24,000 nucleotides of DNA from an uncultured Ignavibacteriaceae bacterium (GCA_964614245.1 CAZTKU010000003.1:23021-47020), one strand, 5' to 3'; positions 2,299 through 16,189 are shown, counted from the first letter of the stretch. The notes: generated by a model from the sequence alone, not told the origin. Numbers and translations are program-made.

Positions 2299-3807
2299 TC
2301 AGGTAAATTTGAACCACTGCTTGACCGCCTGCTGCAATTCGCCACGGTCGTCCTTGTGCCGAAACTCGTTCGTGTGTGAATCGTACGTGTACACTTTCTC
2401 CCACTCCCCGGCATTCTTTTCGATCTCGCGCAGGGCGTTTAGAATGAATTCGAGCTCCCGATCTGTTGTCGTTGGATGAAGAGAAAGCCGAACCCAGCCT
2501 GGTTTCGTTGACAAATCACCCCCATCAATCTTGTCGGTAATTCGTTTCGACGTATATTGATCGACGTGGAGCAAATAGTGGCCGTACGTTCCGGCGCACG
2601 AACAACCGCCGCGCACTTGAATGCCATAGCGATCATTAAGCAGTTTGACCACAAGATTGTAGTGTATCTTCTCGAAATAGAAGGAAATAATGCCCAGACG
2701 GTGTTGGAGGTTGTCTGCCAGAATCGTCAGGCCGGGGATTTGTCGCAATCCGTCAAAGGCCTTCTGCACCAATTGTTGCTCGCGCTGCAGCATGAGCTCC
2801 GAATTCATCTGCTCTTTCAATTCAACAGTGAGAGCAGCTCGAATAGCTTGAAGGAATCCAGGCGTTCCGCCGTCTTCGCGCTCCTCGATGTCGGGTTTAT
2901 ACCGGTATTTTCCCCACGGATTGGTCCATAACACCGTTCCGCCCCCAGGCTGATCGGGCGAGCGAAGGTGGTAGAGTTGAGAGTCGAAGATCAGCACACC
3001 GGACGATCCCGGGCCACCGAGAAATTTGTGGGGAGAAAAAAAGATGCCATCCAGCTTCTCCATCGGATCAGCGGGATGCATATTTATGGGCACATATGGC
3101 GCGGAGGCCGCGAAATCGACGAGGCAAATGCCATCGTGCTCATGCATCAGTTTTGCCATTTTGTGGTATGGCGTGCTGATGCCGGTAACGTTTGAGCATG
3201 CGGTGAACGATCCGATCTTCAGCTTCCGATTTCTGTATTGTTGGAGCAGTGCCCCAAGGTCGTCCAGATCGACAAGCCCCTGATCCGTTGGCTTGATCAC
3301 ACAGACATCGGCAATTGTTTCGTACCAGGCAGTCTGATTGGAGTGGTGCTCCATATGAGTCAAAAAAACAACCGGCCGGAGTTCTTCAGGGAGCGTGCAA
3401 TGTTCTTTGAACCGTTCATGGATTTTCAGCCCAAGGATGCGCTGCAGCTTGTTGATCGCCGCCGTCATGCCGAAGCCGACAAAAAGAAGGGCGTCACGCG
3501 GACCCGCGTTCAAGTGCTTCTTGATAATCTGATGTGCAAGGTGGTAGGCATGGGTCATCGCCGTGCCGGTGATGCTCGACTCGGAATGAGTGTTTCCAAC
3601 CAATGGTCCGAACTCATTGAGTAGCCGTTCTTCGACGGGTCGATACAAACGCCCACTGGCAACCCAGTCAGCGTAAACCAACTCCTTTGCTCCACAAGGT
3701 GTCTGGACAGGATGATGGTGTCCGATGATTTGCTGGCGGAACCGGCCGAAATACTCATCAAGGTTTTTGTACTGCGAATCCTGCGATGCTGACTTCACGA
3801 TGGCCAT
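2299..3807 (-). CDS. Class-V aminotransferase-fold PLP enzyme (cysteine desulfurase/selenocysteine lyase-like, long form)
   Basis: The track ORF 2299..3828 starts at a TTG. I prefer the ATG at 3807 (MAIVKSAS...), which lies 5 nt after GGAAGGAG. PLP-lysine context FSPHKFLGGPGSSG and a C-terminal RGGCSCAGTYGHY motif. Last gene of the dsrC-containing operon. Confidence 0.8.
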   Translation of the reverse strand: MAIVKSASQDSQYKNLDEYFGRFRQQIIGHHHPVQTPCGAKELVYADWVASGRLYRPVEERLLNEFGPLVGNTHSESSITGTAMTHAYHLAHQIIKKHLNAGPRDALLFVGFGMTAAINKLQRILGLKIHERFKEHCTLPEELRPVVFLTHMEHHSNQTAWYETIADVCVIKPTDQGLVDLDDLGALLQQYRNRKLKIGSFTACSNVTGISTPYHKMAKLMHEHDGICLVDFAASAPYVPINMHPADPMEKLDGIFFSPHKFLGGPGSSGVLIFDSQLYHLRSPDQPGGGTVLWTNPWGKYRYKPDIEEREDGGTPGFLQAIRAALTVELKEQMNSELMLQREQQLVQKAFDGLRQIPGLTILADNLQHRLGIISFYFEKIHYNLVVKLLNDRYGIQVRGGCSCAGTYGHYLLHVDQYTSKRITDKIDGGDLSTKPGWVRLSLHPTTTDRELEFILNALREIEKNAGEWEKVYTYDSHTNEFRHKDDRGELQQAVKQWFKFT

Positions 3808-3830
3808 GCCCACTCCTTCCCTATACAATT

Positions 3831-4997
3831 CTAATTCTTCCTGATCTCAGCGATCTCTTTCACTGCCTCAATGGCGTTGTCGATATGCTTGTCGGTATTG
3901 AAAGGACCGATGCTGAGACGGACTGTGCCATGAATCTTGTCAGTGCCTAACCCGACATGCGCTTTCGGCGCACAGTGTAATCCGGTACGGCATGCGATGT
4001 TATGATCCACATCGAGCATCGTGCCAACGTCCCCCGCGTCAAAGTTTTTGATATTGAAGCAGAGTACCGGGTTGTGATTTTCCGAGCTCTCCGCGCAGTA
4101 CGTTACGACGTTTTCGATGCTTTGAATGCCCTTCCGGAGCTTGTCCCACAGCATCATCTCTTTGGCATGCATCTGTTCCAGCCCGTTCTCAAGGACCCAT
4201 TTCACTCCCGCGTGCAGCCCTGCAACACCAAGCAGGTTGAGCGTACCGCACTCAAGGCGATAGGGAAACTCTTCGAGATGAGTCAATTGTGCCGAGCGCA
4301 CTCCCGTGCCGCCAAACCGGGTATACTTAACCGGTACATTTTCCATCACATATGAGCCCCCGATTCCGGTTGGCCCCATGAGGCATTTGTGCCCGGTGAA
4401 CACGACCACATCGATTGCCATCCTCTGCATATCAATTGGCACCGTCCCGGCACTTTGGGTGGTATCCACGATGAACCAGACACCAGCTTCTCTGCAGATC
4501 TTCCCGATCTCAGCGATTGGCTGGATCGTGCCAATGACGTTGGAGCAATGATTCACCACAACCATTTTCGTGTTCTTCTTGATGGCACGCCCGATGTCAT
4601 GGGGGTGAACATATCCATGCTCGTCAAATATGACATGGGTGACCTCAATGACCCCATTCATCTCCAGATGGTGTAGGGGTCGTAGGACCGAATTGTGTTC
4701 CAGCATCGTTGTGACAACATGATCACCCTTTTCGGCCAGCCCCTGGATGATCATATTCAACGAATCGCTTGCGTTGTAGCTGAAGGTCAGTCTGTTGGGG
4801 TCGCCTCCGCCGTGAAAGAACTCAGTCAGGAGTTTTCGAGTATCCATGACGATCTCTTCTGCTTCCAAGGCTGCATCAAACCCTGAGCGGCCCGGGTTTA
4901 CACCATGTTTGCGGTAGAAACTGTTCATGAAGTCGTAGACAGCATCAGGTTTGGGAAACGACGTTGCGGAATTGTCAAGGTAGATCAATGTGCTCAC
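3831..4997 (-). CDS. Cysteine desulfurase family protein (class-V PLP, SufS/CsdA-like active-site loop)
   Basis: 388 aa with a GTG start at 4997 giving MSTLIYLDNSATSFP, the typical desulfurase N-terminus. PLP lysine in FTGHKCLMGPTGIGG. Catalytic-cysteine loop ACRTGLHCAP resembles the SufS RTGHHCA loop. Confidence 0.85.
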   Translation of the reverse strand: MSTLIYLDNSATSFPKPDAVYDFMNSFYRKHGVNPGRSGFDAALEAEEIVMDTRKLLTEFFHGGGDPNRLTFSYNASDSLNMIIQGLAEKGDHVVTTMLEHNSVLRPLHHLEMNGVIEVTHVIFDEHGYVHPHDIGRAIKKNTKMVVVNHCSNVIGTIQPIAEIGKICREAGVWFIVDTTQSAGTVPIDMQRMAIDVVVFTGHKCLMGPTGIGGSYVMENVPVKYTRFGGTGVRSAQLTHLEEFPYRLECGTLNLLGVAGLHAGVKWVLENGLEQMHAKEMMLWDKLRKGIQSIENVVTYCAESSENHNPVLCFNIKNFDAGDVGTMLDVDHNIACRTGLHCAPKAHVGLGTDKIHGTVRLSIGPFNTDKHIDNAIEAVKEIAEIRKN

Positions 4998-5036
4998 GGT
5001 ATTCTATTCATTGTAGTGAATCGGGGAAAGAATGGA

Positions 5037-6335
5037 CTATGCAAGCACCAAGGCATCGGCGACAACTTCTGCCAGCGTCTTGATGTTCACGCCGAGCTTG
5101 AACTTGTTGTTGATCTGAATCAACTGGTCGACGCAGTTGTGACAGGGTGTTACAACCGTCGAGGCACTCGTTTTCCGAATCTGATCCGCCTTGATCTCGG
5201 CGATTTTCATCCGCCGGTCTCCATACTCACTCATGGAAAGCTGACCGCCACCGCCGCCACAGCAGAAATTATCGACACCGTGTGGCGTCATCTCGACAAG
5301 CGTGCTGGCCGCATGGCTTAGGACGAACCGCTGTTCGTCAATGACACCCCCTTCTCTCACGAGGTTGCATGGATCGTGCAACGTCATCACCTCCTGGTTC
5401 TTCTTCTTGTCGAGCGTGATCTTCCCGTCCCGAACATATTCGGCGAGGAGTTCTACCGAAGTGATGGTATTGAAAGAAAACGGGCGTTGAAGGTAGTTCG
5501 GTGCCTCCCAGCGAAAAGCCCGCGAGCCGTGACCACACTCAGCGAGCACACATCGTTTTGCCCCGATGGTTTCCATCTCATCGTGGAGCCTCTGAGCGAT
5601 GATGACTGCTTCTTCCAGGTTGCAGGAGAAATATGCATAGTTTGTGACGTCATACATGGACGTCGACAGCGTCCAGCTCTCTTTTGCGGCATAGAAAACC
5701 TTTGCCATCGCTGAAATCGAGAGGGGGAAGAACTTCGGTTCCCGCGGATTGAGAGTGTACAGAATCTTCGCCCCGACCTGATTGAGTGGGATAGACGCCT
5801 TTGGGTCGTTCACTTCGTCTCTGAGTTCATCCTCCAGCCACGAGATTGTGCTGACAAACTCATCGGTCGGAATAGCCATGTTGTTGCCGGTTTGAAGAGC
5901 GGCGTTGACGGTCGACTGCAGGGTTGCAGGCACGAGCGACATCGCGGCAAGCATTGCTCTCCCCGTTCGTACGACGTACGTAATGTCGACACCGATGGAA
6001 CAATGCATCGTGCATCTTCCACATAATGTACACGAACCGAACAACAAGTCGACCATCTCGTTTACTGTTGCATCGTCGAGCTCACGGGCACCAACAAGAC
6101 GAGGAAACACCCTGCCAGTGAAAGTGCAATAGCGCTGGTAGATGGAAGAGACGAGGGCAACTTTTGCCGCAGGAATAAATCGTTCGTCTTTCATGGCAAG
6201 ATAGTACATACAGCTTTCCGCACACAGTCCGCAGTGAACGCAGCTGTTCAGGTGCGACTCGAGTTGGCTATCCTTCGGCTCAGCGAGAATCCTGAGGGCC
6301 TTTCGGTGTTCCGCGGAAAGATCGCTCATACGCAT
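5037..6335 (-). CDS. DsrK/HdrD-like (Fe-S)-binding protein with CCG domain (heterodisulfide-reductase-type catalytic subunit)
   Basis: 432 aa. Two ferredoxin-type CxxCxxCxxxC motifs (CVHCGLCAESC, CTLCGRCTMHC). C-terminal CCG signature DPCNL...NFCCGGGGG...TPCHNC. The ATG lies 3 nt after the stop of the upstream membrane-subunit gene. Confidence 0.8.
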   Translation of the reverse strand: MRMSDLSAEHRKALRILAEPKDSQLESHLNSCVHCGLCAESCMYYLAMKDERFIPAAKVALVSSIYQRYCTFTGRVFPRLVGARELDDATVNEMVDLLFGSCTLCGRCTMHCSIGVDITYVVRTGRAMLAAMSLVPATLQSTVNAALQTGNNMAIPTDEFVSTISWLEDELRDEVNDPKASIPLNQVGAKILYTLNPREPKFFPLSISAMAKVFYAAKESWTLSTSMYDVTNYAYFSCNLEEAVIIAQRLHDEMETIGAKRCVLAECGHGSRAFRWEAPNYLQRPFSFNTITSVELLAEYVRDGKITLDKKKNQEVMTLHDPCNLVREGGVIDEQRFVLSHAASTLVEMTPHGVDNFCCGGGGGQLSMSEYGDRRMKIAEIKADQIRKTSASTVVTPCHNCVDQLIQINNKFKLGVNIKTLAEVVADALVLA

Positions 6336-6338
6336 CGT

Positions 6339-6959
6339 TCACGATTTCTTGAGAGGCCAGACTCCACGCCAGCCATAGAACAGGCCAAGATGATACCGCG
6401 CGGCAAAGAAATAGAGTGCATGTTTCAACTTCCCAAGGGGGAGGTACAGCAACAGGAGGCTCGCGGAAACGAAATAGAATGGTGCAAAGGCCCCTGAGAC
6501 CAGCATAACCAGGGTGGATATCTGGAGGAGCGTCACAAGGACATTCGATACGTAGTCATCAAGGTTAGACAGACCCCTGAGTTTCGGGAGTACCATTCTC
6601 TTGGTGAGTATCCCGATCCCGCTGAGCCCTGACACTGCGAGAATGCCGGTCACGCTCCACAGTAAAAACCCCTCAATGTGCGCATTCAGGAGCAGCGGGA
6701 AGAAAAGTCCGACGGAGACAAATGTCCCGGCGTGGTATAGCAACCCTGCCGTATACGTTGGCAGATGGAGATAGGCAGACTCTTTCTTTCCCGGGCTCAT
6801 CGCTCCCAGGAAAGAGTAGGTGATCGCGGGCGCCAAATTGCCTCTGCGCTGGGAAAAATCTTTTGGAGGTCCCAAGCGGACAATCCTGACAAAATGATAG
6901 AACAGGCTCGTCAGGCAGAGGAAAAGGGCGGTTAGTGCGAGATAGTGGTACCAGGACAT
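6339..6959 (-). CDS. Polytopic membrane protein, NarI/DsrM/HdrE-like putative heme-b subunit
   Basis: 206 aa with about 5 hydrophobic helices and several membrane-embedded His residues. Positioned directly between dsrC and the DsrK-like gene, as DsrM/HmeC-type partners are. The assignment rests on context plus topology rather than a diagnostic motif. Confidence 0.6.
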   Translation of the reverse strand: MSWYHYLALTALFLCLTSLFYHFVRIVRLGPPKDFSQRRGNLAPAITYSFLGAMSPGKKESAYLHLPTYTAGLLYHAGTFVSVGLFFPLLLNAHIEGFLLWSVTGILAVSGLSGIGILTKRMVLPKLRGLSNLDDYVSNVLVTLLQISTLVMLVSGAFAPFYFVSASLLLLYLPLGKLKHALYFFAARYHLGLFYGWRGVWPLKKS

Positions 6960-6974
6960 GCAGGTTTGATCCCC

Positions 6975-7292
6975 CTAGACACAACCGTCTGGCTTCGGCA
7001 GGCCCGCAACCCGACACGCTCCGCGCGCCGGGCCAAGCGGGAACAGCTGGTAAATCTCCTTGAGCTTTATGCCAGTTACCTGGCAGATCGACCGGATCAT
7101 TGGCGCCATCCCCTTCTCTTCCCAGTTCTTGCGGATATACTTCACGATCGCCCAGTGCTTATCGTTCATCTCTGTAATGCCGTCGTGCTTCGCGATGAGC
7201 CGGGCGACCTCCTCATTCCAAAGGTAAGGGTCTGACAGAAAACCGTCGCCATCTACCTCAAAAACTCTTCCGTCGATTTCCATGGTTGACAT
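6975..7292 (-). CDS. dsrC: DsrC-type sulfur-relay protein (TusE/DsrC/DsvC family, two-cysteine C-terminal arm)
   Basis: 105 aa. The C-terminus ...ARGACRVAGLPKPDGCV carries both conserved cysteines (the penultimate Cys, and a second Cys 10 residues upstream in the C-x10-C-V pattern). This distinguishes DsrC from single-Cys TusE. Confidence 0.9.
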   Translation of the reverse strand: MSTMEIDGRVFEVDGDGFLSDPYLWNEEVARLIAKHDGITEMNDKHWAIVKYIRKNWEEKGMAPMIRSICQVTGIKLKEIYQLFPLGPARGACRVAGLPKPDGCV

Positions 7293-7310
7293 AAGAATAC
7301 TCTCGCTCGA

Positions 7311-7565
7311 CTAACGACCTTCATCCGAAAGTCTATCAAATTCATCAATGATTTCTGAGGGTGAAAGCGGGGAATCGGGCAGAACAAAATCAGGGCAGAG
7401 ATTCAGGGCGTTTTTCGCGATGTAACGCTTGCAGAGGCTATAGGCTTCGATACCGCGGAGACAATAGACGTCGAGGAAGAACTGCTTCTTCTGCGGATCA
7501 GAGATGATGCTCGTTGTCTGAACGAGCTGGCAGGCGCTGTAGTTCGGACAGTGTGGGTCTTCCAT
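7311..7565 (-). CDS. Small Cys-rich hypothetical protein, first gene of the dsrC operon
   Basis: 84 aa with an ATG start and a GAAGGGA Shine-Dalgarno-like element 2 nt upstream. Five Cys residues (HCPNYSAC...YCLRG...LCKRY...LCPDF) and an acidic C-terminal tail. Sits 18 nt upstream of dsrC. I recognise no family. Confidence 0.5.
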   Translation of the reverse strand: MEDPHCPNYSACQLVQTTSIISDPQKKQFFLDVYCLRGIEAYSLCKRYIAKNALNLCPDFVLPDSPLSPSEIIDEFDRLSDEGR

Positions 7566-7781
7566 ATCCCTTCACGGCGAAAGCATTCCGCTGAGTACGA
7601 CATACTAAGTTAGAGGTTGAAGCCTAAAAATCAAGGCTTCCCGCCCGAGAATTCAAAGCGTTGGGAACACAATGCTGCAGGATGCAGAATCCCGATTTCA
7701 TCGTCGTCCCGCGGACTGGGCGGACAAGCGACGGCAATCCAGGTGATCGAGCGAACTCTCATGACTGCATGTTGTACCTGC

Positions 7782-8567
7782 TCACTTCGTCGCCGGAGAG
7801 GTTCGGTGAACGAGTGTTGTGGATGCCTGGTTGGTCGGCAGAATGATGAGTTCTGCAATCTGCACGTGGGGTGGCCGTGTTGCGCAAAAAAGAACAGCGT
7901 CTGCTACATCAGAACCTGTCAGGGGAGTGAGATTCTGGTACACCGTTTTTGCCCTTTGCTCATCGCCGCGGAAGCGGACCATGCTGAACTCTGTCTCAAC
8001 AAGACCGGGATCGACGGTGCAAACGCGAATCGGTGTGTCAACGAGATCGTGGCGCAATCCCCTGGTCAGCGCATCAACTGCGAACTTCGTCGCACAGTAA
8101 ACGTTTCCTCCTGGATACACCTCGTGGCCAGCGATCGAGCCGATATTGATAATTGTGCCGTGGCCGCGGGCAACCATGCCGGGGATAACCGCGCGACTCA
8201 CATAAAGCAATCCCTTCACATTCGTGTCGATCATCTCCTCCCAATCTTCAATCTTCCCTTCGTGGAGCTTATGAAGACCGCGGCTGAGCCCGGCGTTGTT
8301 CAGAAGCACCTCAATCTCCTGCCACTCTTTCGGGAGGTTTTTGACTGCGGTTTTCACGTCCGGTTGTTTGCGGACATCGAGCTGGATCGCATAGACATCC
8401 GTGCCGTGTTTTGCCTTGAGTTCTTTCGCAAGGGCATCGATGCGTTGTTTGCGGCGCGCTGCGAGAATGAGGCGCGCGCCTTCCCGCGCAAACGCGTGCG
8501 CACAGGCGAAGCCGATACCGCTGCTCGCACCCGTGATGAGAACAAGCTTCTTTGTAAGAGAGATCAT
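7782..8567 (-). CDS. ydfG: Short-chain dehydrogenase/reductase, YdfG-like NADP-dependent 3-hydroxy-acid/serine dehydrogenase
   Basis: 261 aa. TGASSGIG Rossmann motif, NNAG, and catalytic Y-x3-K (NVYCATK). From memory, it aligns end to end with E. coli YdfG (DWEEMIDTNVKGL..., VRFRGDEQRAKTVYQ...). The 318-aa + ORF 7617..8573 is its antisense shadow. Confidence 0.85.
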   Translation of the reverse strand: MISLTKKLVLITGASSGIGFACAHAFAREGARLILAARRKQRIDALAKELKAKHGTDVYAIQLDVRKQPDVKTAVKNLPKEWQEIEVLLNNAGLSRGLHKLHEGKIEDWEEMIDTNVKGLLYVSRAVIPGMVARGHGTIINIGSIAGHEVYPGGNVYCATKFAVDALTRGLRHDLVDTPIRVCTVDPGLVETEFSMVRFRGDEQRAKTVYQNLTPLTGSDVADAVLFCATRPPHVQIAELIILPTNQASTTLVHRTSPATK

Positions 8568-8618
8568 GTCTGAGTAATGGGCTTAGGCGGAAAAGGTGAA
8601 TCTTACCAAACGGCAGGC

Positions 8619-8647
8619 AAATTACAAAGCAGCAGCTGGAATGTCAA
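8619..8647 (-). promoter_or_regulatory. Sigma70-like promoter for the SDR gene
   Basis: Minus strand reads TTGACA (8647-8642), a 17-nt spacer, then TAATTT (8624-8619), about 50 nt upstream of the ATG at 8567. Preceded by T7 and GGTTATA heptamer repeats. Prediction from sequence only. Confidence 0.5.
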
Positions 8648-8678
8648 CAACCTATAACCTATAACCTACAAAAAAAAC

Positions 8679-9824
8679 CTACACCCTCCCCCGCAAGATC
8701 TTCCACTGGTCAACGATCTCCTCACCTCTGACAACGTAGTACCGATCGAAGTTCGCTGCGGTCAGGCAAGAATGGTGTTCGAGGATCCGAAGCCTGTCCC
8801 CAACCTTGAATTTTCCTTCAATGAATCGCGGATCGACCGTGACGACCTTGCCATGCTCCTGTGAGAGGGTTCTGTAGTGGATATGGGGATGGAGCCGTCT
8901 GCGCTCGTAGTCCTCGTAGATGATGCCCATATCCATGTCGTTTCTGATGTGCGTGGGACCCTGATCTTTCGACAGGGCGAGCGCGCCGGCATCCGTGATG
9001 AAGTAGGAGGCTCCCGGTTGATGCGAGATCACCGAAGAAAGCACGGTCAACGCGCACTCGGCTATCCCACAGCTGCCGAGCATGACCTGTGTGTAATCAT
9101 AGAACGCATAATTTCCCGGCCGCGCCTCATCAATGCCTTTGAGACTTTCGGCGACCGACAGTACAGGGGTCGAGCCGATGCTGATCATGGGGATGTTGTA
9201 CCCTTTGTCTCTCATCCTCTCGGCAAACTCGATCATAATGAACCGCTCTTGCTCCGCGTACGCAAGGATCTCTGCGCGGTTGTGCGCGCTGTACGACTGC
9301 CCGGAATGGCTCAGGATTCCATCAAAGATAAGCGTCTTCGATTCACTCAGCGAACGAAGAAGTTCCTCCGCCAGCGAAGAACGGGGGTCAACACCCGCGC
9401 GATGAAACCCGCAGTCAACCTTGAGCCAGACGTGAATCCGCTGGCCGGTTACCTGCGCAATGTGGTCGAGATGGCCGTGTGCTTCCAGACTATCAACCAC
9501 GACCCGAATCCGCGACTTCTCGTACAGTTCTGCAACCTTTGATGCATAGATCGGAGGAAGAGGAAAAGCCCACGTGATGTCGTTGAATCCCGCCGCTGCA
9601 AACTGCTCCGCCTCGTAAAACGTTGAAACGGTGACTCCGCGAGCCCCGAGCTCCAATTGGTGGTTTGCGATTTCGATGCACTTGTGCGTCTTGATATGAG
9701 GCCGCAGTGCGACACCAAGGGTGTTCGCCCGGTCCTGCATCGCGGTGAGGTTGCGCTCGAGAATGTCGTGATCAATCAAGAGCGCAGGAGTCGGAAGTTC
9801 ATGAATGCTGGTTACTGTGCCCAT
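8679..9824 (-). CDS. PLP-dependent D-threonine aldolase / D-serine dehydratase (DSD1)-family enzyme (alanine-racemase-N fold)
   Basis: The track ORF 8679..10034 starts at a GTG, and its first 70 residues are Arg/Ser-rich and not protein-like. I call the ATG at 9824 (MGTVTSIHELPTPALLIDHDILERN...), the typical family N-terminus. PLP-lysine motif RPHIKTHK. Confidence 0.8.
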   Translation of the reverse strand: MGTVTSIHELPTPALLIDHDILERNLTAMQDRANTLGVALRPHIKTHKCIEIANHQLELGARGVTVSTFYEAEQFAAAGFNDITWAFPLPPIYASKVAELYEKSRIRVVVDSLEAHGHLDHIAQVTGQRIHVWLKVDCGFHRAGVDPRSSLAEELLRSLSESKTLIFDGILSHSGQSYSAHNRAEILAYAEQERFIMIEFAERMRDKGYNIPMISIGSTPVLSVAESLKGIDEARPGNYAFYDYTQVMLGSCGIAECALTVLSSVISHQPGASYFITDAGALALSKDQGPTHIRNDMDMGIIYEDYERRRLHPHIHYRTLSQEHGKVVTVDPRFIEGKFKVGDRLRILEHHSCLTAANFDRYYVVRGEEIVDQWKILRGRV

Positions 9825-10306
9825 AGCATTAAGGGAAAGTAAGCAAGAGTTGGAGTCAGTACGCTCTTGACGGGTTCGGTTTGTCCGCGAACCTGCTCGG
9901 TGCGAGGAACCGTCTCTGAGATTCTGTGTGATGCAGCACGGGAGTCTCGAACGGACCTGAGCGTGTAGCCGGCATATCGAGACGCGGAAACCGCCCCTCC
10001 TGAATGGCGGTTGCGATTCCACCGCCAAATCCACCGGCTAGTGTTTTCGTGCAACACAAAGCATCGCCCCGCGTTCTCCACTACAACGGCCTCCATGAGC
10101 TTGTCCTGCAGGTGCAACGTACGGAGGTCGAACAAGTCGATACTAGGATAGCGGATTTCCGGGACATTCTCATTGACCCAGTGCACACCAAGCCCAAGAG
10201 TTACAGCGGTCACGTCGGATCCTTCCTGTGCAATCCAAGCCCGTCTAGCTGGAGCTTGTCGTAATCGCCGGAGATATGCCCTTCAATGATGCAGAAAGTT
10301 GATCAG

Positions 10307-10335
10307 AAAAAAAAGATCGCCCCAAAAGGGCGATC
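10307..10335 (-). terminator. Rho-independent terminator of cassette A
   Basis: Minus strand reads GATCGCCC-TTTT-GGGCGATC followed directly by T8, about 40 nt downstream of the TGA at 10377-10379. Confidence 0.8.
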
Positions 10336-10376
10336 CGTGTAACAGCGTGTATGTCTACAAGAGGATTTAGACAAGC

Positions 10377-11600
10377 TCACTCAAACCATGAAACGATCTC
10401 ATAGTTACCCGTCGTGGGGAAGAACGGCGGCGCGTCAAACATCAGTCGCTCGTCATACAGATAGTTCTTGAGAAAACCGTCCTCCAGACTCGGTGGGCTG
10501 CCGCTGAAGGTTCCAACAGCCCCTCTCTTATTTTGCTGGATCCCTCCCAGCAGCTTGATCCTTCCCTCCACACCACGCGAGCCATATTTCTCTGCAGTAA
10601 AACCACCAGAGCGGGAGAAGGTCGAAGCGTGGAGATTGAAATCATTTGCATTGTTCGCGGTGTTGTTGGCTATCAGGATGTTGTTCTCTGCTACGAGACC
10701 ACAAATGTCATCAGATGGACCCAGGAGAGGATTTTGTTCATACACCAGGTCGTCATCAAGAAAGATGTTCCCTCTGGTGTTGGAGCCCGTGGTCCCACCC
10801 GCACCAAGAGTGACCCTGCCGTTGACAGTGCCCCAGGTGTGAACGTTTGTCCCGTTGGCATAGATAACACCGTTCGGGGCGAACGTCGAGAGGGGCTCTT
10901 CGCTCCAGGAGGAACTGACACCCTGTTTCCACTTCACATTTCCGTTGCTCTTGAATTCTATGTAGACAGAATCCGGACCGGTGAAGAGTTTTCCTCCATT
11001 GTTGGCAGCTGTCAGAAGGGGATCGAGGTTTGCTGGGAGGCTGACGCTGACACCGCTCTCGTATCCGCCCAGGAATTGTGGTTTGTCGACCGAGGGGCCG
11101 GTCTTGTAAATAATGGTTTTCAATGATGTGGTCCGTTGCTCGAAGACAGGTTTGCCCGCCACGCGCAGGTTGTCCTGTGTGTGCATGGGCCCCCATACCG
11201 TATCGCCCGTGATCCACCAGATTTCCCCCTCAATGTTACTGTAATAACCGAATCGTGAGAAGCTGCTCGGTTGGAGGAGGACGGCGACCGTGGAGAGATG
11301 ACCCATAAAACTGGCCGTTGTGACAACCTTGATCTGATTGACGTCGGCATCCGACACTCGTGCATTGAACGTGCCGCCCATGAAGGCTTTGTTTGCGAAT
11401 CCACCCCTCCAGGCAAAGTTTTCCCACAGTGCTCGAGCAGCCATATTCGTTCCAGCTGCAGCAATACTGTGTGCCTCACTTCCCTTATAGTAGCCAAGGT
11501 AATTGTCCATCGCTGAGCTGGAAACCTTGGAGATGTTCGAGCCTATCATCAGCAACGCAGTGCTGAAGCCCATAACCATGAGTAACGCCGCTTTTCCCAT
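10377..11600 (-). CDS. Large PilX/GspK-like pseudopilin-like protein (copy A)
   Basis: 407 aa with an ATG 8 nt after GGGGGAGGA. The N-terminus MGKAALLMVMGFSTALLMIGSNISKVSSS...AHSIAAAGTNMAARAL resembles the PilX_N pattern: a hydrophobic helix followed by an Ala-rich helix. The rest is Gly/Asn/Thr-rich and predicted beta-rich (GRVTLGAGGTTGSNTRGNIFLDDD, NNILIANNTANNAND), ending in ...YDERLMFDAPPFFP.... The function is an inference. Confidence 0.65.
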   Translation of the reverse strand: MGKAALLMVMGFSTALLMIGSNISKVSSSAMDNYLGYYKGSEAHSIAAAGTNMAARALWENFAWRGGFANKAFMGGTFNARVSDADVNQIKVVTTASFMGHLSTVAVLLQPSSFSRFGYYSNIEGEIWWITGDTVWGPMHTQDNLRVAGKPVFEQRTTSLKTIIYKTGPSVDKPQFLGGYESGVSVSLPANLDPLLTAANNGGKLFTGPDSVYIEFKSNGNVKWKQGVSSSWSEEPLSTFAPNGVIYANGTNVHTWGTVNGRVTLGAGGTTGSNTRGNIFLDDDLVYEQNPLLGPSDDICGLVAENNILIANNTANNANDFNLHASTFSRSGGFTAEKYGSRGVEGRIKLLGGIQQNKRGAVGTFSGSPPSLEDGFLKNYLYDERLMFDAPPFFPTTGNYEIVSWFE

Positions 11601-11616
11601 GACAAGTTCCTCCCCC

Positions 11617-12264
11617 TTATCGGTTTCGTAAGTTTCGTGACGCCAGGCGAATCTGCCGCCAATACACCTTGAAATCTGCCGAGTCCGCTGCCTCTGATGT
11701 ATACTCCACCTTCATCAACGGCGCCGGGCTCTCCAGTGAAATGTTGATCTCCATCGTATAGATCAACCTGGGATCAGGGACCGGAAACGGAATGGTGTCT
11801 CCCAGGGCATCGTAATAACGAAGGCTGAACTGTGTTACCCCAAGGTTCCATCCCTTTGCCGCATTGCCGTTGACGATGCGATACAGATACCGGTCGTGCG
11901 GATTCGGAGTGCTGGACAACTCAGAGGTGTCTCCCAGAGAGTAATAAATCGTATCCACAACACCATCACCGATATCACCGGGACTGCTTGGGATATCGGT
12001 CAAGAACTTGATGGCGTGGGAATCGGCACTGACAATCGCCGTGTTGGGTGGTTGGATCTTTTTGTAATCCTTGCAGTAGCCGATCTTGCGGAAGTCGGAT
12101 TCGACAACATCGACTAATGCCACAATGCTTTGCTGGAGGTTGAGATTGTTCTGGTAGACGGCGTTGGTTTCAATGGCCTGAGCATTCAGGCGCAACGCCA
12201 TCAGCAGAAGCACAGAGCCAACAACGGTGGCGCTGACGATATCGAAGATAGTACTAGCACCCAT
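11617..12264 (-). CDS. PilW/GspJ-like pseudopilin-like protein (copy A)
   Basis: 215 aa with an ATG 5 nt after GAGGTGA. N-terminal hydrophobic segment MGASTIFDIVSATVVGSVLLLMAL. This is followed by AVYQNNLNLQQSIVALVDVVESDFRKIGYC, which resembles the conserved helix-to-globular junction of PilW/GspJ-type minor pilins (recalled pattern ...Q..L....aR.al..l..DlR.AGY). Confidence 0.65.
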   Translation of the reverse strand: MGASTIFDIVSATVVGSVLLLMALRLNAQAIETNAVYQNNLNLQQSIVALVDVVESDFRKIGYCKDYKKIQPPNTAIVSADSHAIKFLTDIPSSPGDIGDGVVDTIYYSLGDTSELSSTPNPHDRYLYRIVNGNAAKGWNLGVTQFSLRYYDALGDTIPFPVPDPRLIYTMEINISLESPAPLMKVEYTSEAADSADFKVYWRQIRLASRNLRNR

Positions 12265-12272
12265 GGTTCACC

Positions 12273-12764
12273 TCACCGGAATGACCAGTAGCTGAAAATG
12301 TAAGACATCTTCACCGTGTCCTGAGCGTTATCCGCTTTGACAAACACCGTGAGCTTCTTGTTCCATGTGCGACCGCTGGCTGTGCCGTTGGGATCAGATG
12401 TGTCAGTATACGCAACCGTGCCCCATCTCTTGAAAGCGTCGACACCCTGGATGTGAACAGTATCCGTCCAGCCATTATAGTCGTCGAAGTCGTCAAAGGT
12501 ATCACGCGTTGTCTCACCCGCCTCCTTGCCGAGCGTCGAACTCAACTCATTCGTGCTCAAGGCGAGGCTGTCAAGGGTATTCTTGTCATACGCCTTACCC
12601 TGCGACTCTTCAATGATGGACATACCGAGTGAGATGCCGAAGATACCGATCTCGGTTTGTTGAAGGATCACGCCGTGCTGGCTGAACGTCCGGTTGATGC
12701 TGACGACGTTCGATCCCAGCAACACAATGGCAATGATGGTCAGAAGCGTTTGACCCGTATTCAT
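12273..12764 (-). CDS. Small PilV/GspI-like pseudopilin-like protein (copy A)
   Basis: 163 aa. The N-terminus MNTG-QTLLTIIAIVLLGS resembles a class-III (prepilin) signal, G then Q-T-L-L, but has Thr instead of Glu at +5 and only a 4-residue leader. AGGAAGG lies 9 nt upstream of the ATG. Confidence 0.65.
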   Translation of the reverse strand: MNTGQTLLTIIAIVLLGSNVVSINRTFSQHGVILQQTEIGIFGISLGMSIIEESQGKAYDKNTLDSLALSTNELSSTLGKEAGETTRDTFDDFDDYNGWTDTVHIQGVDAFKRWGTVAYTDTSDPNGTASGRTWNKKLTVFVKADNAQDTVKMSYIFSYWSFR

Positions 12765-12867
12765 AGCAATGCACCTTCCTGCAAGTCAGACCGAAGTGAC
12801 TGCTGTGCGGTACGAAATTCTTAGGTGTGATAACAAGGTCTGGCGACTCAATCCAACATCTCCACCT

Positions 12868-12896
12868 ATTATAACCGATTTTGAGAATAAGGTCAA
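12868..12896 (-). promoter_or_regulatory. Near-consensus sigma70 promoter for cassette A
   Basis: Minus strand reads TTGACC (12896-12891), an exactly 17-nt spacer (ttattctcaaaatcggt), then TATAAT (12873-12868). The predicted transcript start is near 12861, giving a leader of about 95 nt before the ATG at 12764. Confidence 0.6.
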
Positions 12897-13153
12897 ATGA
12901 TCCCCATCACCGGAGCCCTGCAAGTTGACGAGCTTGACCGCAGGCCGGTCTCCGTGGATAAGGCAATAAAGCCAAGAGGCTGCAAATGACCCCGAAAAAC
13001 ACAGCTTTCTGTAGCAGGTGGGAATTGTGAATGTTTGCGCTTCGGGGGCTCTGGGCAAAACCTGGTGGTCAATGCAAACAGCAAGGGTGGTTAAAGCCCG
13101 GAGGAAAAGGGCATCAGGTCAGAGTGAAGGAGTTTTGGCGGACTTAAAGCAGT

Positions 13154-13191
13154 GTGCCCGCTTCGGGTGATGCTTCCGCTGAAGCGGGCAC
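13154..13191 (-). terminator. Strong hairpin downstream of cassette B (candidate terminator)
   Basis: GTGCCCGCTTC (13154-13164) pairs with GAAGCGGGCAC (13181-13191): an 11-bp perfect stem with a 16-nt loop, 62 nt downstream of the TAA at 13254-13256. There is no U-tract on the minus-strand side. The T-rich run (gagattttatt) is on the + side, so its role is uncertain. Confidence 0.4.
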
Positions 13192-13253
13192 GAGATTTTA
13201 TTCAACGGGTGGAGAAACCCTTCTTTGGATCTAGGATAGACGTCCCTCCTTTA

Positions 13254-14477
13254 TTACTCGAACCATGAAACGATCTCATAGTTACCCGTTGTGGGGAAGA
13301 ACGGCGGTGCGTCAAACATGAGTCGGTCATCATACAGATAGTTCTTGAGAAACCCGTTCTGCAGGACTGGTGGGCTGCCAGAAAACGTACCCACAGCGCC
13401 TCTCTTGTTTTGCTGGATCCCTCCCAGCAGCTTTATCCTTCCCTCTACATTGCGCGAGCCGTATTTCTCTGCAGTAAAACCACCAGAGCGGGAGAAGGTC
13501 GAAGCGTGGAGATTGAAATCATTTGCATTGTTCGCGGTGTTGTTGGCTATCAGGATGTTGTTCTCTGCTACGAGACCACAAATGTCATCAGATGGACCCA
13601 GGAGAGGATTTTGTTCATACACCAGGTCGTCATCAAGAAAGATGTTCCCTCTGGTGTTGGAGCCCGTGGTCCCACCCGCACCAAGAGTGACCCTGCCGTT
13701 GACAGTGCCCCAGGTGTGAACGTTTGTCCCGTTGGCATAGATAACACCGTTCGGGGCGAACGTCGAGAGGGGCTCTTCGCTCCAGGAGGAACTGACACCC
13801 TGTTTCCACTTCACATTTCCGTTGCTCTTGAATTCTATGTAGACAGAATCCGGACCGGTGAAGAGTTTTCCTCCATTGTTGGCAGCTGTCAGAAGGGGAT
13901 CGAGGTTTGCTGGGAGGCTGACGCTGACACCGCTCTCGTATCCGCCCAGGAATTGTGGTTTGTCGACCGAGGGGCCGGTCTTGTAAATAATGGTTTTCAA
14001 TGATGTGGTCCGTTGCTCGAAGACAGGTTTGCCCGCCACGCGCAGGTTGTCCTGTGTGTGCATGGGCCCCCATACCGTATCGCCCGTGATCCACCAGATT
14101 TCCCCCTCAATGTTACTGTAATAACCGAATCGTGAGAAGCTGCTCGGTTGGAGGAGGACGGCGACCGTGGAGAGATGACCCATAAAACTGGCCGTTGTGA
14201 CAACCTTGATCTGATTGACGTCGGCATCCGACACTCGTGCATTGAACGTGCCGCCCATGAAGGCTTTGTTTGCGAATCCACCCCTCCAGGCAAAGTTTTC
14301 CCACAGTGCTCGAGCAGCCATATTCGTTCCAGCTGCAGCAATACTGTGTGCCTCACTTCCCTTATAGTAGCCAAGGTAATTGTCCATCGCTGAGCTGGAA
14401 ACCTTGGAGATGTTCGAGCCTATCATCAGCAACGCAGTGCTGAAGCCCATAACCATGAGTAACGCCGCTTTTCCCAT
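13254..14477 (-). CDS. Large PilX/GspK-like pseudopilin-like protein (copy B)
   Basis: 407 aa. Identical to copy A through residue 342. Differs at G343N, S371V, E373Q, D374N and E384D. Confidence 0.65.
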   Translation of the reverse strand: MGKAALLMVMGFSTALLMIGSNISKVSSSAMDNYLGYYKGSEAHSIAAAGTNMAARALWENFAWRGGFANKAFMGGTFNARVSDADVNQIKVVTTASFMGHLSTVAVLLQPSSFSRFGYYSNIEGEIWWITGDTVWGPMHTQDNLRVAGKPVFEQRTTSLKTIIYKTGPSVDKPQFLGGYESGVSVSLPANLDPLLTAANNGGKLFTGPDSVYIEFKSNGNVKWKQGVSSSWSEEPLSTFAPNGVIYANGTNVHTWGTVNGRVTLGAGGTTGSNTRGNIFLDDDLVYEQNPLLGPSDDICGLVAENNILIANNTANNANDFNLHASTFSRSGGFTAEKYGSRNVEGRIKLLGGIQQNKRGAVGTFSGSPPVLQNGFLKNYLYDDRLMFDAPPFFPTTGNYEIVSWFE

Positions 14478-14493
14478 GACAAGTTCCTCCCCC

Positions 14494-15141
14494 TTATCGG
14501 TTTCGTAAGTTTCGTGACGCCAGGCGAATCTGCCGCCAATACACCTTGAAATCTGCCGAGTCCGCTGCCTCTGATGTATACTCCACCTTCATCAACGGCG
14601 CCGGGCTCTCCAGTGAAATGTTGATCTCCATCGTATAGATCAACCTGGGATCAGGGACCGGAAACGGAATGGTGTCTCCCAGGGCATCGTAATAACGAAG
14701 GCTGAACTGTGTTACCCCAAGGTTCCATCCCTTTGCCGCATTGCCGTTGACGATGCGATACAGATACCGGTCGTGCGGATTCGGAGTGCTGGACAACTCA
14801 GAGGTGTCTCCCAGAGAGTAATAAATCGTATCCACAACACCATCACCGATATCACCGGGACTGCTTGGGATATCGGTCAAGAACTTGATGGCGTGGGAAT
14901 CGGCACTGACAATCGCCGTGTTGGGTGGTTGGATCTTTTTGTAATCCTTGCAGTAGCCGATCTTGCGGAAGTCGGATTCGACAACATCGACTAATGCCAC
15001 AATGCTTTGCTGGAGGTTGAGATTGTTCTGGTAGACGGCGTTGGTTTCAATGGCCTGAGCATTCAGGCGCAACGCCATCAGCAGAAGCACAGAGCCAACA
15101 ACGGTGGCGCTGACGATATCGAAGATAGTACTAGCACCCAT
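14494..15141 (-). CDS. PilW/GspJ-like pseudopilin-like protein (copy B)
   Basis: 215 aa, 100% identical to copy A at both nucleotide and protein level. Confidence 0.65.
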   Translation of the reverse strand: MGASTIFDIVSATVVGSVLLLMALRLNAQAIETNAVYQNNLNLQQSIVALVDVVESDFRKIGYCKDYKKIQPPNTAIVSADSHAIKFLTDIPSSPGDIGDGVVDTIYYSLGDTSELSSTPNPHDRYLYRIVNGNAAKGWNLGVTQFSLRYYDALGDTIPFPVPDPRLIYTMEINISLESPAPLMKVEYTSEAADSADFKVYWRQIRLASRNLRNR

Positions 15142-15149
15142 GGTTCACC

Positions 15150-15641
15150 TCACCGGAATGACCAGTAGCTGAAAATGTAAGACATCTTCACCGTGTCCTG
15201 AGCGTTATCCGCTTTGACAAACACCGTGAGCTTCTTGTTCCATGTGCGACCGCTGGCTGTGCCGTTGGGATCAGATGTGTCAGTATACGCAACCGTGCCC
15301 CATCTCTTGAAAGCGTCGACACCCTGGATGTGAACAGTATCCGTCCAGCCATTATAGTCGTCGAAGTCGTCAAAGGTATCACGCGTTGTCTCACCCGCCT
15401 CCTTGCCGAGCGTCGAACTCAACTCATTCGTGCTCAAGGCGAGGCTGTCAAGGGTATTCTTGTCATACGCCTTACCCTGCGACTCTTCAATGATGGACAT
15501 ACCGAGTGAGATGCCGAAGATACCGATCTCGGTTTGTTGAAGGATCACGCCGTGCTGGCTGAACGTCCGGTTGATGCTGACGACGTTCGATCCCAGCAAC
15601 ACAATGGCGACGATCGTGAGCAGTGTCTGGCCAGTGTTCAT
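15150..15641 (-). CDS. Small PilV/GspI-like pseudopilin-like protein (copy B)
   Basis: 163 aa with one replacement relative to copy A (I11V). Codons 2-9 all differ from copy A at the synonymous third position. GGAGAAAGG lies upstream of the ATG. Confidence 0.65.
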   Translation of the reverse strand: MNTGQTLLTIVAIVLLGSNVVSINRTFSQHGVILQQTEIGIFGISLGMSIIEESQGKAYDKNTLDSLALSTNELSSTLGKEAGETTRDTFDDFDDYNGWTDTVHIQGVDAFKRWGTVAYTDTSDPNGTASGRTWNKKLTVFVKADNAQDTVKMSYIFSYWSFR

Positions 15642-15818
15642 TGCTAGTCCTTTCTCCGCTTCGTTGATTTCTCTTCAACGAGATGTTAAAGAAGTGCAGA
15701 AGATTCCTTGTTGATAACCTCAAAGGGCGTACCAGCGACAAGTTTGACGAACTCTGGAGGAAATTCTGGCTTTCTCAGAAACGACTCAGTTCAGACTCTT
15801 TGTAGGACGGAATCAAAC

Positions 15819-15833
15819 CGAGACAGTGTCTCG
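15819..15833. promoter_or_regulatory. Perfect 15-bp palindrome (possible operator) upstream of cassette B
   Basis: CGAGACA-G-TGTCTCG: 7-bp half-sites around one central base, about 180 nt upstream of the cassette B start codon in an ORF-free region. The function is speculative. Confidence 0.25.
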
Positions 15834-16140
15834 ATCAGCTACACACGCCGATGGGGGCAACGAAAGGTTTAGCTCGGCAGTATCATCCTCCGGGTTGCTG
15901 TGAAAAGTGTCATTTTGTAGAATCTTCACTTTGAGCATTCTCCGTCAGTTGAGGTCTCAGATCAAGCAGGGAACGAGCTACTCTCTCCGAGACGCAGCCC
16001 AAGCGCCATGAACGAGCTTTGTGCCAACCTGAACAATCAACTACGGCGCGACTCTTCTTGAGAGGTCTTTGAGGTGGGAAAAATTGAACGCTTTGAACCG
16101 GAGCGACAGAGAGAGAGAAAAACGAGGGAGATTATTCTTT

Positions 16141-16182
16141 GAGGCGATTCGACCCTGATGTCCAGTTGAGCGGAATCGCCTC
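16141..16182 (-). terminator. Hairpin immediately after the aminopeptidase gene (candidate terminator)
   Basis: GAGGCGATTC (16141-16150) pairs with GAATCGCCTC (16173-16182): a 10-bp stem with a 22-nt loop, starting 8 nt after the TGA at 16190-16192. There is no adjacent U-tract. A pyrimidine run (ctccctcgtttttctctctctct) follows about 10 nt later on the minus strand. Confidence 0.3.
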
Positions 16183-16189
16183 AGGAGCA

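Follow-up and report, generated by a model that had tools for sequence, protein, structure and literature searches.

A 24,000-nucleotide (nt) stretch of DNA from an uncultured Ignavibacteriaceae bacterium (GCA_964614245.1, CAZTKU010000003.1:23021-47020; hereafter the window) carries two tandem copies of a three-gene cassette on its minus strand. We consider it likely that they form an ancient tandem pair that has been repeatedly homogenised by RecA-type recombination, most recently over a core of 2,147 bp. The minus-strand gene order is PdxJ, SppA, an M24 aminopeptidase, the upstream cassette c1 (15641-13254), a spacer, the downstream cassette c2 (12764-10377), a D-serine (D-Ser) dehydratase-like gene, SDR, DsrC and others; c1 and c2 are copies B and A, respectively, of the original prediction, which was made from the window sequence. 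Coordinates of all features are collected in Table 1, and contigs and loci of other strains and genera are designated by L numbers.

An identical core between diverged edges and unrelated flanks

Each cassette consists of three minus-strand open reading frames of 163, 215 and 407 amino acids (genes 1, 2 and 3), separated by gaps of 8 and 16 nt. Compared base by base at an offset of 2,877 bp, c1 and c2 show 0 mismatches over the 2,147 nt of the core, which includes both intergenic junctions. Toward the ends the identity breaks off: the 208-nt 3' edge contains 29 mismatches, and the 30-nt 5' edge (12732-12761 vs. 15609-15638) contains 10, so that the whole cassettes are 98.4% identical as against 100% for the core alone. 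Homology ends at the start and stop codons, beyond which identity drops to ~25% per 30-nt window, the level of unrelated DNA, and the three intergenic flanks have zero 11-mers in common.

The consequences for the encoded proteins are small. The stop codons of gene 3 differ (TGA in c2, TAA in c1), the two gene 3 products differ at five amino acids, all of them C-terminal, and the gene 1 products differ at one (I11V), which makes 6 differences in 785 residues between the two protein sets; codons 2-9 of gene 1 differ at third positions only. By the Nei-Gojobori method, the 3' edge has a proportion of synonymous differences (pS) of 0.39, a synonymous divergence (dS) of 0.56 and a nonsynonymous divergence (dN) of 0.06; in the 5' edge, synonymous sites are saturated (9 changes on 8.5 sites); and the core shows no change at any of its roughly 490 synonymous sites.

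All 39 differences fall within 238 edge positions (P about 1e-39 if placed uniformly), and none of 100,000 permutations reached an identical run of at least 2,147 nt. Uniform divergence cannot give such a pattern, and the pattern is not due to chance. The step in divergence along the alignment is abrupt, as expected at the end of a gene conversion tract. The original prediction had described the perfect core, the mismatch counts at both edges with their stop codons, five amino-acid changes and eight codons differing at the third position, the unalignable flanks and the non-uniformity of the divergence, and our comparison reproduces each of these.

Support for the two-copy layout from independent contigs

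The original prediction also named an alternative, an assembly artefact that copied one core into both loci. Two contigs from other samples bear on it. In L041 (~93.5% identity to the window), the last 56 nt of c1 lead into the same spacer, then into c2 and then into the downstream gene; in L040, the c1 core is joined to the first 45 nt of the spacer. Moreover, both distinct gene 3 products are encoded on one deposited NCBI contig (49,753 bp). Because the spacer recurs in both of these independent contigs, the two-copy layout is, by this comparison of assemblies, no artefact, and the alternative fails as far as the layout is concerned. Since the window belongs to a metagenome bin, and strains with one cassette coexist in habitats of a similar kind, one might think of a second copy that is wholly artefactual, arising from chimeric joining of contigs of two strains or from wrong scaffolding of a repeat; but with the c1-spacer junction present in both of these contigs, and a two-cassette layout kept in several related genera, we regard this as extremely improbable.

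A narrower version of the artefact concerns the identity of the core. Both cassettes would be real, and sparse differences between their cores, with a real identity of about 98-99%, would have been erased by repeat collapse, by popping of single-nucleotide-polymorphism bubbles or by polishing with multi-mapped reads. Several points speak for it and weigh against our interpretation: 100% identity over 2.1 kb is also expected from a de Bruijn-graph assembler that crosses one collapsed repeat edge twice, and could also arise when a long-read assembly is polished with short reads; the source contig was assembled from a metagenome; the tract ends exactly at the first mismatches, like a shared unitig; and related short-read assemblies break in or at the ends of cassettes (L040-L044, L005 and L006), as befits a repeat that is hard to assemble. 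An assembler cannot, however, merge sequences that are 14% or 30% diverged, and the sharp step in divergence, from 14-33% at the edges to about 0% in the core, is therefore largely real. As the layout and spacer recur in an independent sample and the deposited genome carries both distinct gene 3 products, we consider an erasure of core differences unlikely.

The duplication is old and the upstream position carries downstream-type sequence

Relatives in related genera (L001/L002/L023, L008/L024 and L003) hold two tandem cassettes in the same synteny, that is, PdxJ-SppA-M24 peptidase, cassettes 1 and 2, D-Ser-dehydratase-like gene and SDR. Their tandem cassettes are 70-72% identical to each other in nucleotide sequence over the whole length and contain no homogenised stretch. 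Because syntenic relatives hold two cassettes that are only this similar, the cassette duplication is, on comparative grounds, ancient. The spacer points the same way: L041 shares it at 90% identity despite 7% divergence of the flanks, and the two-copy layout is therefore older than the identity of the core. The unrelated flanks of the window cassettes and the two-cassette loci of L001, L003 and L008 likewise place the duplication before the core identity.

In a neighbour-joining tree of gene 3 (200 bootstraps), the upstream copies of the relatives form one clade (182/200), and the downstream copies, both window copies and the close relatives form another (183/200); the two window paralogues are closer to each other than to their positional orthologues. 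As both window copies fall into the downstream-type clade, the gene at the upstream position of the window has, by this tree, been overwritten by downstream-type sequence and is not the orthologue of the upstream gene of other genomes. The two window copies are 6-9% diverged from every sister-strain cassette, about as much as the flanks are, yet their cores are 100% alike. Along with the 70-72% copies of the relatives and the 5' edge of c1 (see below), these results support the earlier proposal of old paralogues whose interior was recently homogenised.

The direction of conversion, probably from downstream-type to upstream position, is read from gene 3 only. Genes 1 and 2 are too conserved for paralogue typing, with sliding-window differences of at most 4 points and ambiguous assignments, which weakens the case for that direction. 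A cassette built as a clean chimera of an upstream-type gene 1 and a downstream-type gene 3 was considered and dropped, since genes 1 and 2 gave no type.

Edge haplotypes and tract boundaries

The edges had been taken for remnants of the old paralogues. This holds at the 5' end of c1, where upstream-type states are kept in the first 33 nt only. It does not hold at the 3' end: the identity of the two 3' edges is 86% in the window as against about 60% in relatives, and by their protein sequence both window edges are of the downstream type; therefore they do not date from the original duplication.

The two 3' edges correspond to haplotypes A (in c1) and B (in c2) that recur in strains with flanks ~93% identical to the window. 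The downstream-position edge of L044 (haplotype B) has 10 mismatches to window c2 vs. 28 to c1, and that of L043 (haplotype A) has 14 mismatches to window c1 vs. 25 to c2; haplotype A also occupies the downstream position in L041, L020 and L004. Judged by this recurrence, the two haplotypes are real alleles that also segregate in sister strains, and their sharing implies several nested conversion events. In the simplest account, A and B would be the native c1 and c2 edges of the clade, and longer tracts would have moved A into c2 in some strains. A joint import of the c2 3' edge and its downstream flank from an L039-like strain found no support, the flank being equidistant (~93%) from all relatives.

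Tract ends appear to differ between strains on the 3' side. The c1 and c2 ends of L041 first differ only ~22 nt from the stop codon, and the 3' boundary of that strain is therefore unlike that of the window, 208 nt from the stop. On the 5' side, the Logan contig L042 (95.7% identity) begins exactly at the base that matches 12731/15608, and the boundary appears stable. These arguments from the contig ends of L041 and L042 are suggestive; strain mixtures in metagenomes could also break contigs, and this must be held against them.

The almost purely synonymous divergence of the edges, which the original prediction had observed correctly, can now be given a more specific explanation. The N-terminus of gene 1 (MNTGQTLLTI) is invariant, and the C-terminus of gene 3 (...DAPPFFPTTGNYEIVSWFE) near-invariant, in homologues down to 38% identity, and edge divergence is thus almost purely synonymous because the edges encode termini that hardly vary in the whole family.

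Cassette content and alleles vary among close strains

The cassettes of close strains are mosaics of blocks. The window and L042 are 100% identical over stretches of ~300 and ~600 nt and only 76-86% identical in the blocks between. The mosaic blocks lie at window positions 12365-12464, 11865-11964, 11265-11564 and 11065-11164 (cassette columns ~301-400, 801-900, 1201-1500 and 1601-1700); they are 74-86% identical between close strains, as against 96-100% for neighbouring stretches. Each block seems, from the strains compared, to have two alleles that are shuffled independently of the other blocks. Such a block-wise mosaic shows that recombination is frequent.

The number of cassettes varies as well. 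The closest long contigs (91-95% DNA identity), L020 (83 kb; 6417-9224) and L004 (435-3429), carry a single cassette between the M24 peptidase and the D-Ser-dehydratase-like gene, and copy number is therefore polymorphic in the clade. The ~420-bp region upstream of the L020/L004 cassette is unlike either upstream region of the window, the promoter motif described below excepted, and is 85% identical to that of the far more distant L027; simple deletion from a genome like that of the window therefore does not account for L020 and L004. Given this polymorphism, a history of duplication and deletion is inseparable from one of pure conversion, a point that tells against homogenisation by conversion as the full account.

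These single-cassette relatives raise the alternative that a single cassette such as theirs was recently duplicated in tandem, and that the edges and spacer were later replaced from divergent strains. The strongly mosaic alleles in the population show that imports occur, and both 3' edge haplotypes are downstream-type, as this history would have it. A fresh copy would, however, have duplicated its junction, whereas the three flanks lack any common 11-mer; the same spacer, at 90% identity, stands in a strain with 7% diverged flanks; the 5' edge of c1 has upstream-type states; and more distant relatives hold two cassettes at the same site. We therefore judge a recent duplication to be very unlikely.

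Other inserts occupy the locus in further strains. In L039 (1339-5331; also in L038), whose flanks are 93-94% identical to those of the window, both cassettes are absent and another insert takes their place. It consists of three genes (193, 214 and 343 amino acids; 27-31% identity) that form a distantly related cassette in inverted orientation, and it abuts the final ~150 nt of gene 3 (window 10377-10528), a remnant with the haplotype B edge. The more distant L013 (3725-14615) carries three different cassettes side by side (166/208/400, 205/193/377 and, inverted, 191/195/349 amino acids). Immediately upstream of them lie genes for a histidine kinase and for a PilS/PilR-type response regulator that depends on sigma-54; a link of the cassettes to a type IV filament through these neighbours is suggestive only. 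In a separate sub-clade, we noted an extra gene 3 paralogue of 410-415 amino acids and 48-53% identity to the window protein (L007:1674-2918, L009:5192-6436 and L010:5218-6447). It lies just upstream of the cassette, at the place of gene 3 of cassette 1; a tblastn search with the window proteins (>60 bits) found no relative of gene 1 or gene 2 before it, and L007 leaves only ~1.7 kb upstream.

A bolder picture can be drawn from this variability: the locus bounded by the M24 peptidase and D-Ser-dehydratase-like genes would be a hot spot of recombination, at which a complex resembling a pilus tip is diversified. Built-in homology arms would be provided by the two invariant coding ends, 5' in gene 1 and 3' in gene 3; whole cassettes would be gained, lost and swapped between strains (one in L020/L004, two in the window and L041, inverted in L039); variable blocks would be shuffled between tandem copies by segmental conversion; and the window pair would be an extreme outcome of ongoing donor/acceptor exchange between two differently regulated operons. 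The evidence for cassette swapping consists of the inverted cassette of L039 and the multi-cassette loci of L013, and we judge such a hot spot to be unlikely. If true, pilin cassette variation would have an analogue at the scale of whole operons, in a phylum for which no such system is described.

A model of repeated homogenisation

In the history that we favour, homologous (RecA-type) recombination between direct repeats 2.9 kb apart would have copied one cassette over the other, repeatedly, either by non-reciprocal gene conversion or by rounds of unequal crossing-over (sister-chromatid exchange). Gene conversion and unequal exchange are established routes to concerted evolution. An older event would have turned the cassette at the upstream position into a downstream-type one, and a very recent event would have left the 2,147-bp tract without a difference. 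Conversion endpoints need flanking identity; the outermost homology converts least, diverges, and then blocks later tracts. In the window, tracts would start and stop inside the homology, and the outermost 33 nt and 208 nt, converted least, would keep older haplotypes.

We found no direct or inverted repeats at the flanks that would indicate a mobile element. Programmed or site-specific recombination was rejected, there being no G-quadruplex (G4) motif in the window and no mobile-element repeats at the flanks, and so was a foreign origin of the cassettes, whose GC content and third-position GC content (GC3) are host-like.

The cassette encodes a predicted minor-pilin-like triad

An AlphaFold2 model of gene 3, built with 61 homologues, has a predicted local distance difference test score (pLDDT) of 90 and consists of a helix at residues 3-60 followed by a beta-rich domain. 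Its sole significant matches in the PDB are three chains of ComZ of Thermus thermophilus (6QVI), with E 1e-8 and prob 1.0, but a template modelling (TM) score of only 0.30-0.38. The AlphaFold2 model of gene 2 (pLDDT 71) follows the same plan, with a helix at residues 3-59 plus a sheet; its ten best PDB matches are all pseudopilins or pilins, namely EpsJ (3CFI), XcpW alone and in XcpVWX (3NJE, 6UTU and 5VTM) and TTHA1219 (5G23), with E 2e-3 to 2e-2 and prob 0.90-1.0. Gene 1 has, by its sequence, a hydrophobic N-terminus, and its family-wide invariant start MNTG|QTLLT resembles a degenerate G|FTLIE prepilin motif. A conserved glycine occurs in all three proteins (G4 in gene 1, G2 in genes 2 and 3).

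Profile searches gave fainter signals. Pfam at default thresholds returned no match for any of the three proteins; gene 3 reaches 19.6 bits (E 0.0012) against DUF4900 (PF16241), below the cutoff of 29.4, and many of its homologues have a precomputed PF16241 match, often weak or faint. Gene 2 weakly matches the NCBIfam prepilin peptidase-dependent protein family at E 8e-5 and 22 bits (cutoff 120), and JGI annotation labels many of its homologues "PulJ". Neither an hhalign comparison of gene 1 with gene 2 nor a search of NCBIfam with the homologues of gene 1 was positive. The family is large, with 858 scored homologues of gene 3 and 603 of gene 2, those with a label coming from Ignavibacteria or Bacteroidota metagenome bins.

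On the strength of the structural models, we would read each cassette as encoding a minor-pilin-like triad comparable to GspI-J-K or ComZ-PilA2; its three proteins would most likely form the tip or priming complex of minor pilins in a type IV filament. Several results count against this assignment: the leaders are of 1-3 residues and contain no basic residues, unlike class III signal peptides; none of the three proteins has Glu at +5, having Thr, Phe or Leu instead; genes 1 and 2 have no Pfam match even at E 10; profile searches of the PDB with all three genes gave no pilin match; and no pilus or type IV filament machinery is encoded in the 24-kb window. Glu at +5 is also known to be missing in GspK/PilX-type subunits.

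Each cassette has its own upstream region and terminal hairpin

Upstream of c2, the spacer contains a strong sigma-70-like promoter within a motif of 33-44 nt that recurs in relatives (window 12867-12910, minus strand; L001:8190-8222; L008:6707-6739; L020:6698-6730), each time with TTGACC-17-TATAAT. The motif is kept ~100 nt before downstream-type cassettes across genera whose coding identity is only ~75%; such conservation is unusually strong for an intergenic site. Upstream of c1, no consensus promoter was found in the intergenic region (15642-16189), the first ~474 bp of which, after the M24 gene, are common to the single-cassette relative L020. A search for sigma-54 promoters gave 19 matches vs. 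12.7 expected, none of them convincing before either cassette, and neither the window nor L020 gave a match to Rfam.

Downstream, c2 is followed by a canonical intrinsic terminator and c1 by a hairpin that is a possible terminator or attenuator. From these elements, each cassette looks like its own transcription unit.

Table 1. Features of the window discussed in the text, with positions counted from its first nucleotide
Feature	Position	Strand	Description
c1 gene 1	15150-15641	-	163 amino acids; invariant N-terminus MNTGQTLLTI, then hydrophobic helix; I11V vs. c2
c1 gene 2	14494-15141	-	215 amino acids; predicted GspJ/PilW-like pseudopilin; same sequence as c2 copy
c1 gene 3	13254-14477	-	407 amino acids; predicted ComZ-like large pilin, N-terminal helix and beta-rich domain; TAA
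c2 gene 1	12273-12764	-	163 amino acids
c2 gene 2	11617-12264	-	215 amino acids; predicted GspJ/PilW-like
c2 gene 3	10377-11600	-	407 amino acids; predicted ComZ-like; TGA
Identical core, c1 copy	13462-15608		2,147 nt, same as 10585-12731
Identical core, c2 copy	10585-12731		0 differences vs. 13462-15608
c1 3' edge, haplotype A	13254-13461	-	commoner haplotype; also in L041_c2, L043, L020, L004 and largely L040_c1
c2 3' edge, haplotype B	10377-10584	-	also at downstream position in L044; also in L039/L038; 29 differences vs. c1
c1 5' edge, first 11 codons	15609-15641	-	upstream-type states Val11, CAG, ACA; common to L001_c1, L008_c1, L025 and L030
c2 5' edge, first 11 codons	12732-12764	-	downstream-type; equals L041_c2
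c1 upstream intergenic region	15642-16189	-	unrelated to spacer
Hairpin after c1	13154-13191	-	stable; -24.7 kcal/mol, z -4.8, weak U tract
Spacer between cassettes	12765-13253	-	unique, 489 bp; 90% identity in independent contig L041
Sigma-70-like promoter of c2	12868-12896	-	TTGACC-17-TATAAT, 11/12 matches, about 100 nt before c2
Intrinsic terminator after c2	10314-10336	-	canonical; 10-bp GC-rich stem, then U8
DsrC-like protein	6975-7292	-	
CCG/4Fe-4S protein, HdrD/DsrK type	5037-6335	-	
Two class-V aminotransferase or cysteine-desulfurase-like genes	2299-4997	-	

Comparison with known systems

Concerted evolution by gene conversion has been surveyed in prokaryotes (PMC6053082), and gene conversion rates are available for the rrn operons of E. 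coli (PMC8022953). The window pair resembles the classical cases, tufA/tufB and the rRNA operons, in that paralogues within a genome are closer than orthologues between genomes, and in that an identical tract ends sharply inside the homology, with diverged flanks and purifying selection on the coding sequence. It differs from them in that a whole three-gene operon with two intergenic junctions is involved, in direct tandem 489 bp apart; in that the proteins are non-housekeeping, surface-type ones; and in that closely related strains differ in copy number.

ComZ, a pilin into which a beta-solenoid is inserted, has been proposed to occupy, with PilA2, the competence pilus tip (PMC6561018). With the minor-pilin tip complexes GspI-J-K (XcpV-W-X; 5VTM/6UTU), EpsI-EpsJ (3CFI) and ComZ-PilA2 (6QVI), the cassette shares a small/medium/large triad with hydrophobic N-terminal segments, which extend as a helix nearly 60 residues long in the gene 2 and gene 3 models, and predicted folds of the GspJ type for gene 2 and of ComZ for gene 3. 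The cassette proteins, by contrast, have no pilin-profile similarity, leaders of only 1-3 residues, no Glu+5 and no adjacent assembly genes. Several complete minor-pilin sets per genome are also found in Myxococcus xanthus (clusters 1-3; PMC7541494, PMC9109919), where each set, as here, has its own upstream region, suggesting differential expression, and related Ignavibacteria resemble it in having 2-3 different cassettes side by side. The M. xanthus sets are diverged and functionally distinct, whereas those of the window are near-identical in protein and would differ mainly in regulation or dosage. The pilE/pilS system of Neisseria offers a parallel in the non-reciprocal transfer of pilin-gene segments between linked copies and in the block-wise mosaic alleles among strains; however, neither cassette of the window is a silent partial donor, both being complete and apparently expressible, each with start codons, an upstream region of its own and a terminal hairpin; the window has no G4 motif, and the outcome is homogenisation rather than diversification.

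The locus thus offers an unusually clean natural case of operon-scale concerted evolution: the kind of event is known and no new mechanism is revealed, but the gene family is uncharacterised, and other genomes allow the duplication to be dated, the paralogues to be typed and the tract ends to be placed differently in different strains. With the structural models, a triad common in Ignavibacteria, and until now called hypothetical or DUF4900, receives its first structural annotation, at a locus that varies in cassette content between close strains. In practical terms, our results call for caution when such repeats are assembled or binned and give a lead on the tips of type IV filaments in the phylum.

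Other genes of the window

Immediately downstream of c2, the D-Ser-dehydratase-like gene (8679-10034, minus strand) has a longest open reading frame of 451 amino acids with a GTG start and an N-terminal extension of ~70 residues, whereas its relatives are 379-381 amino acids long and have no such extension; its true start is probably the Met at residue 71, at about window position 9824. Farther downstream, window positions 2299-7565 (minus strand) hold a cluster of sulfur-related genes that is unrelated to the cassettes (Table 1).

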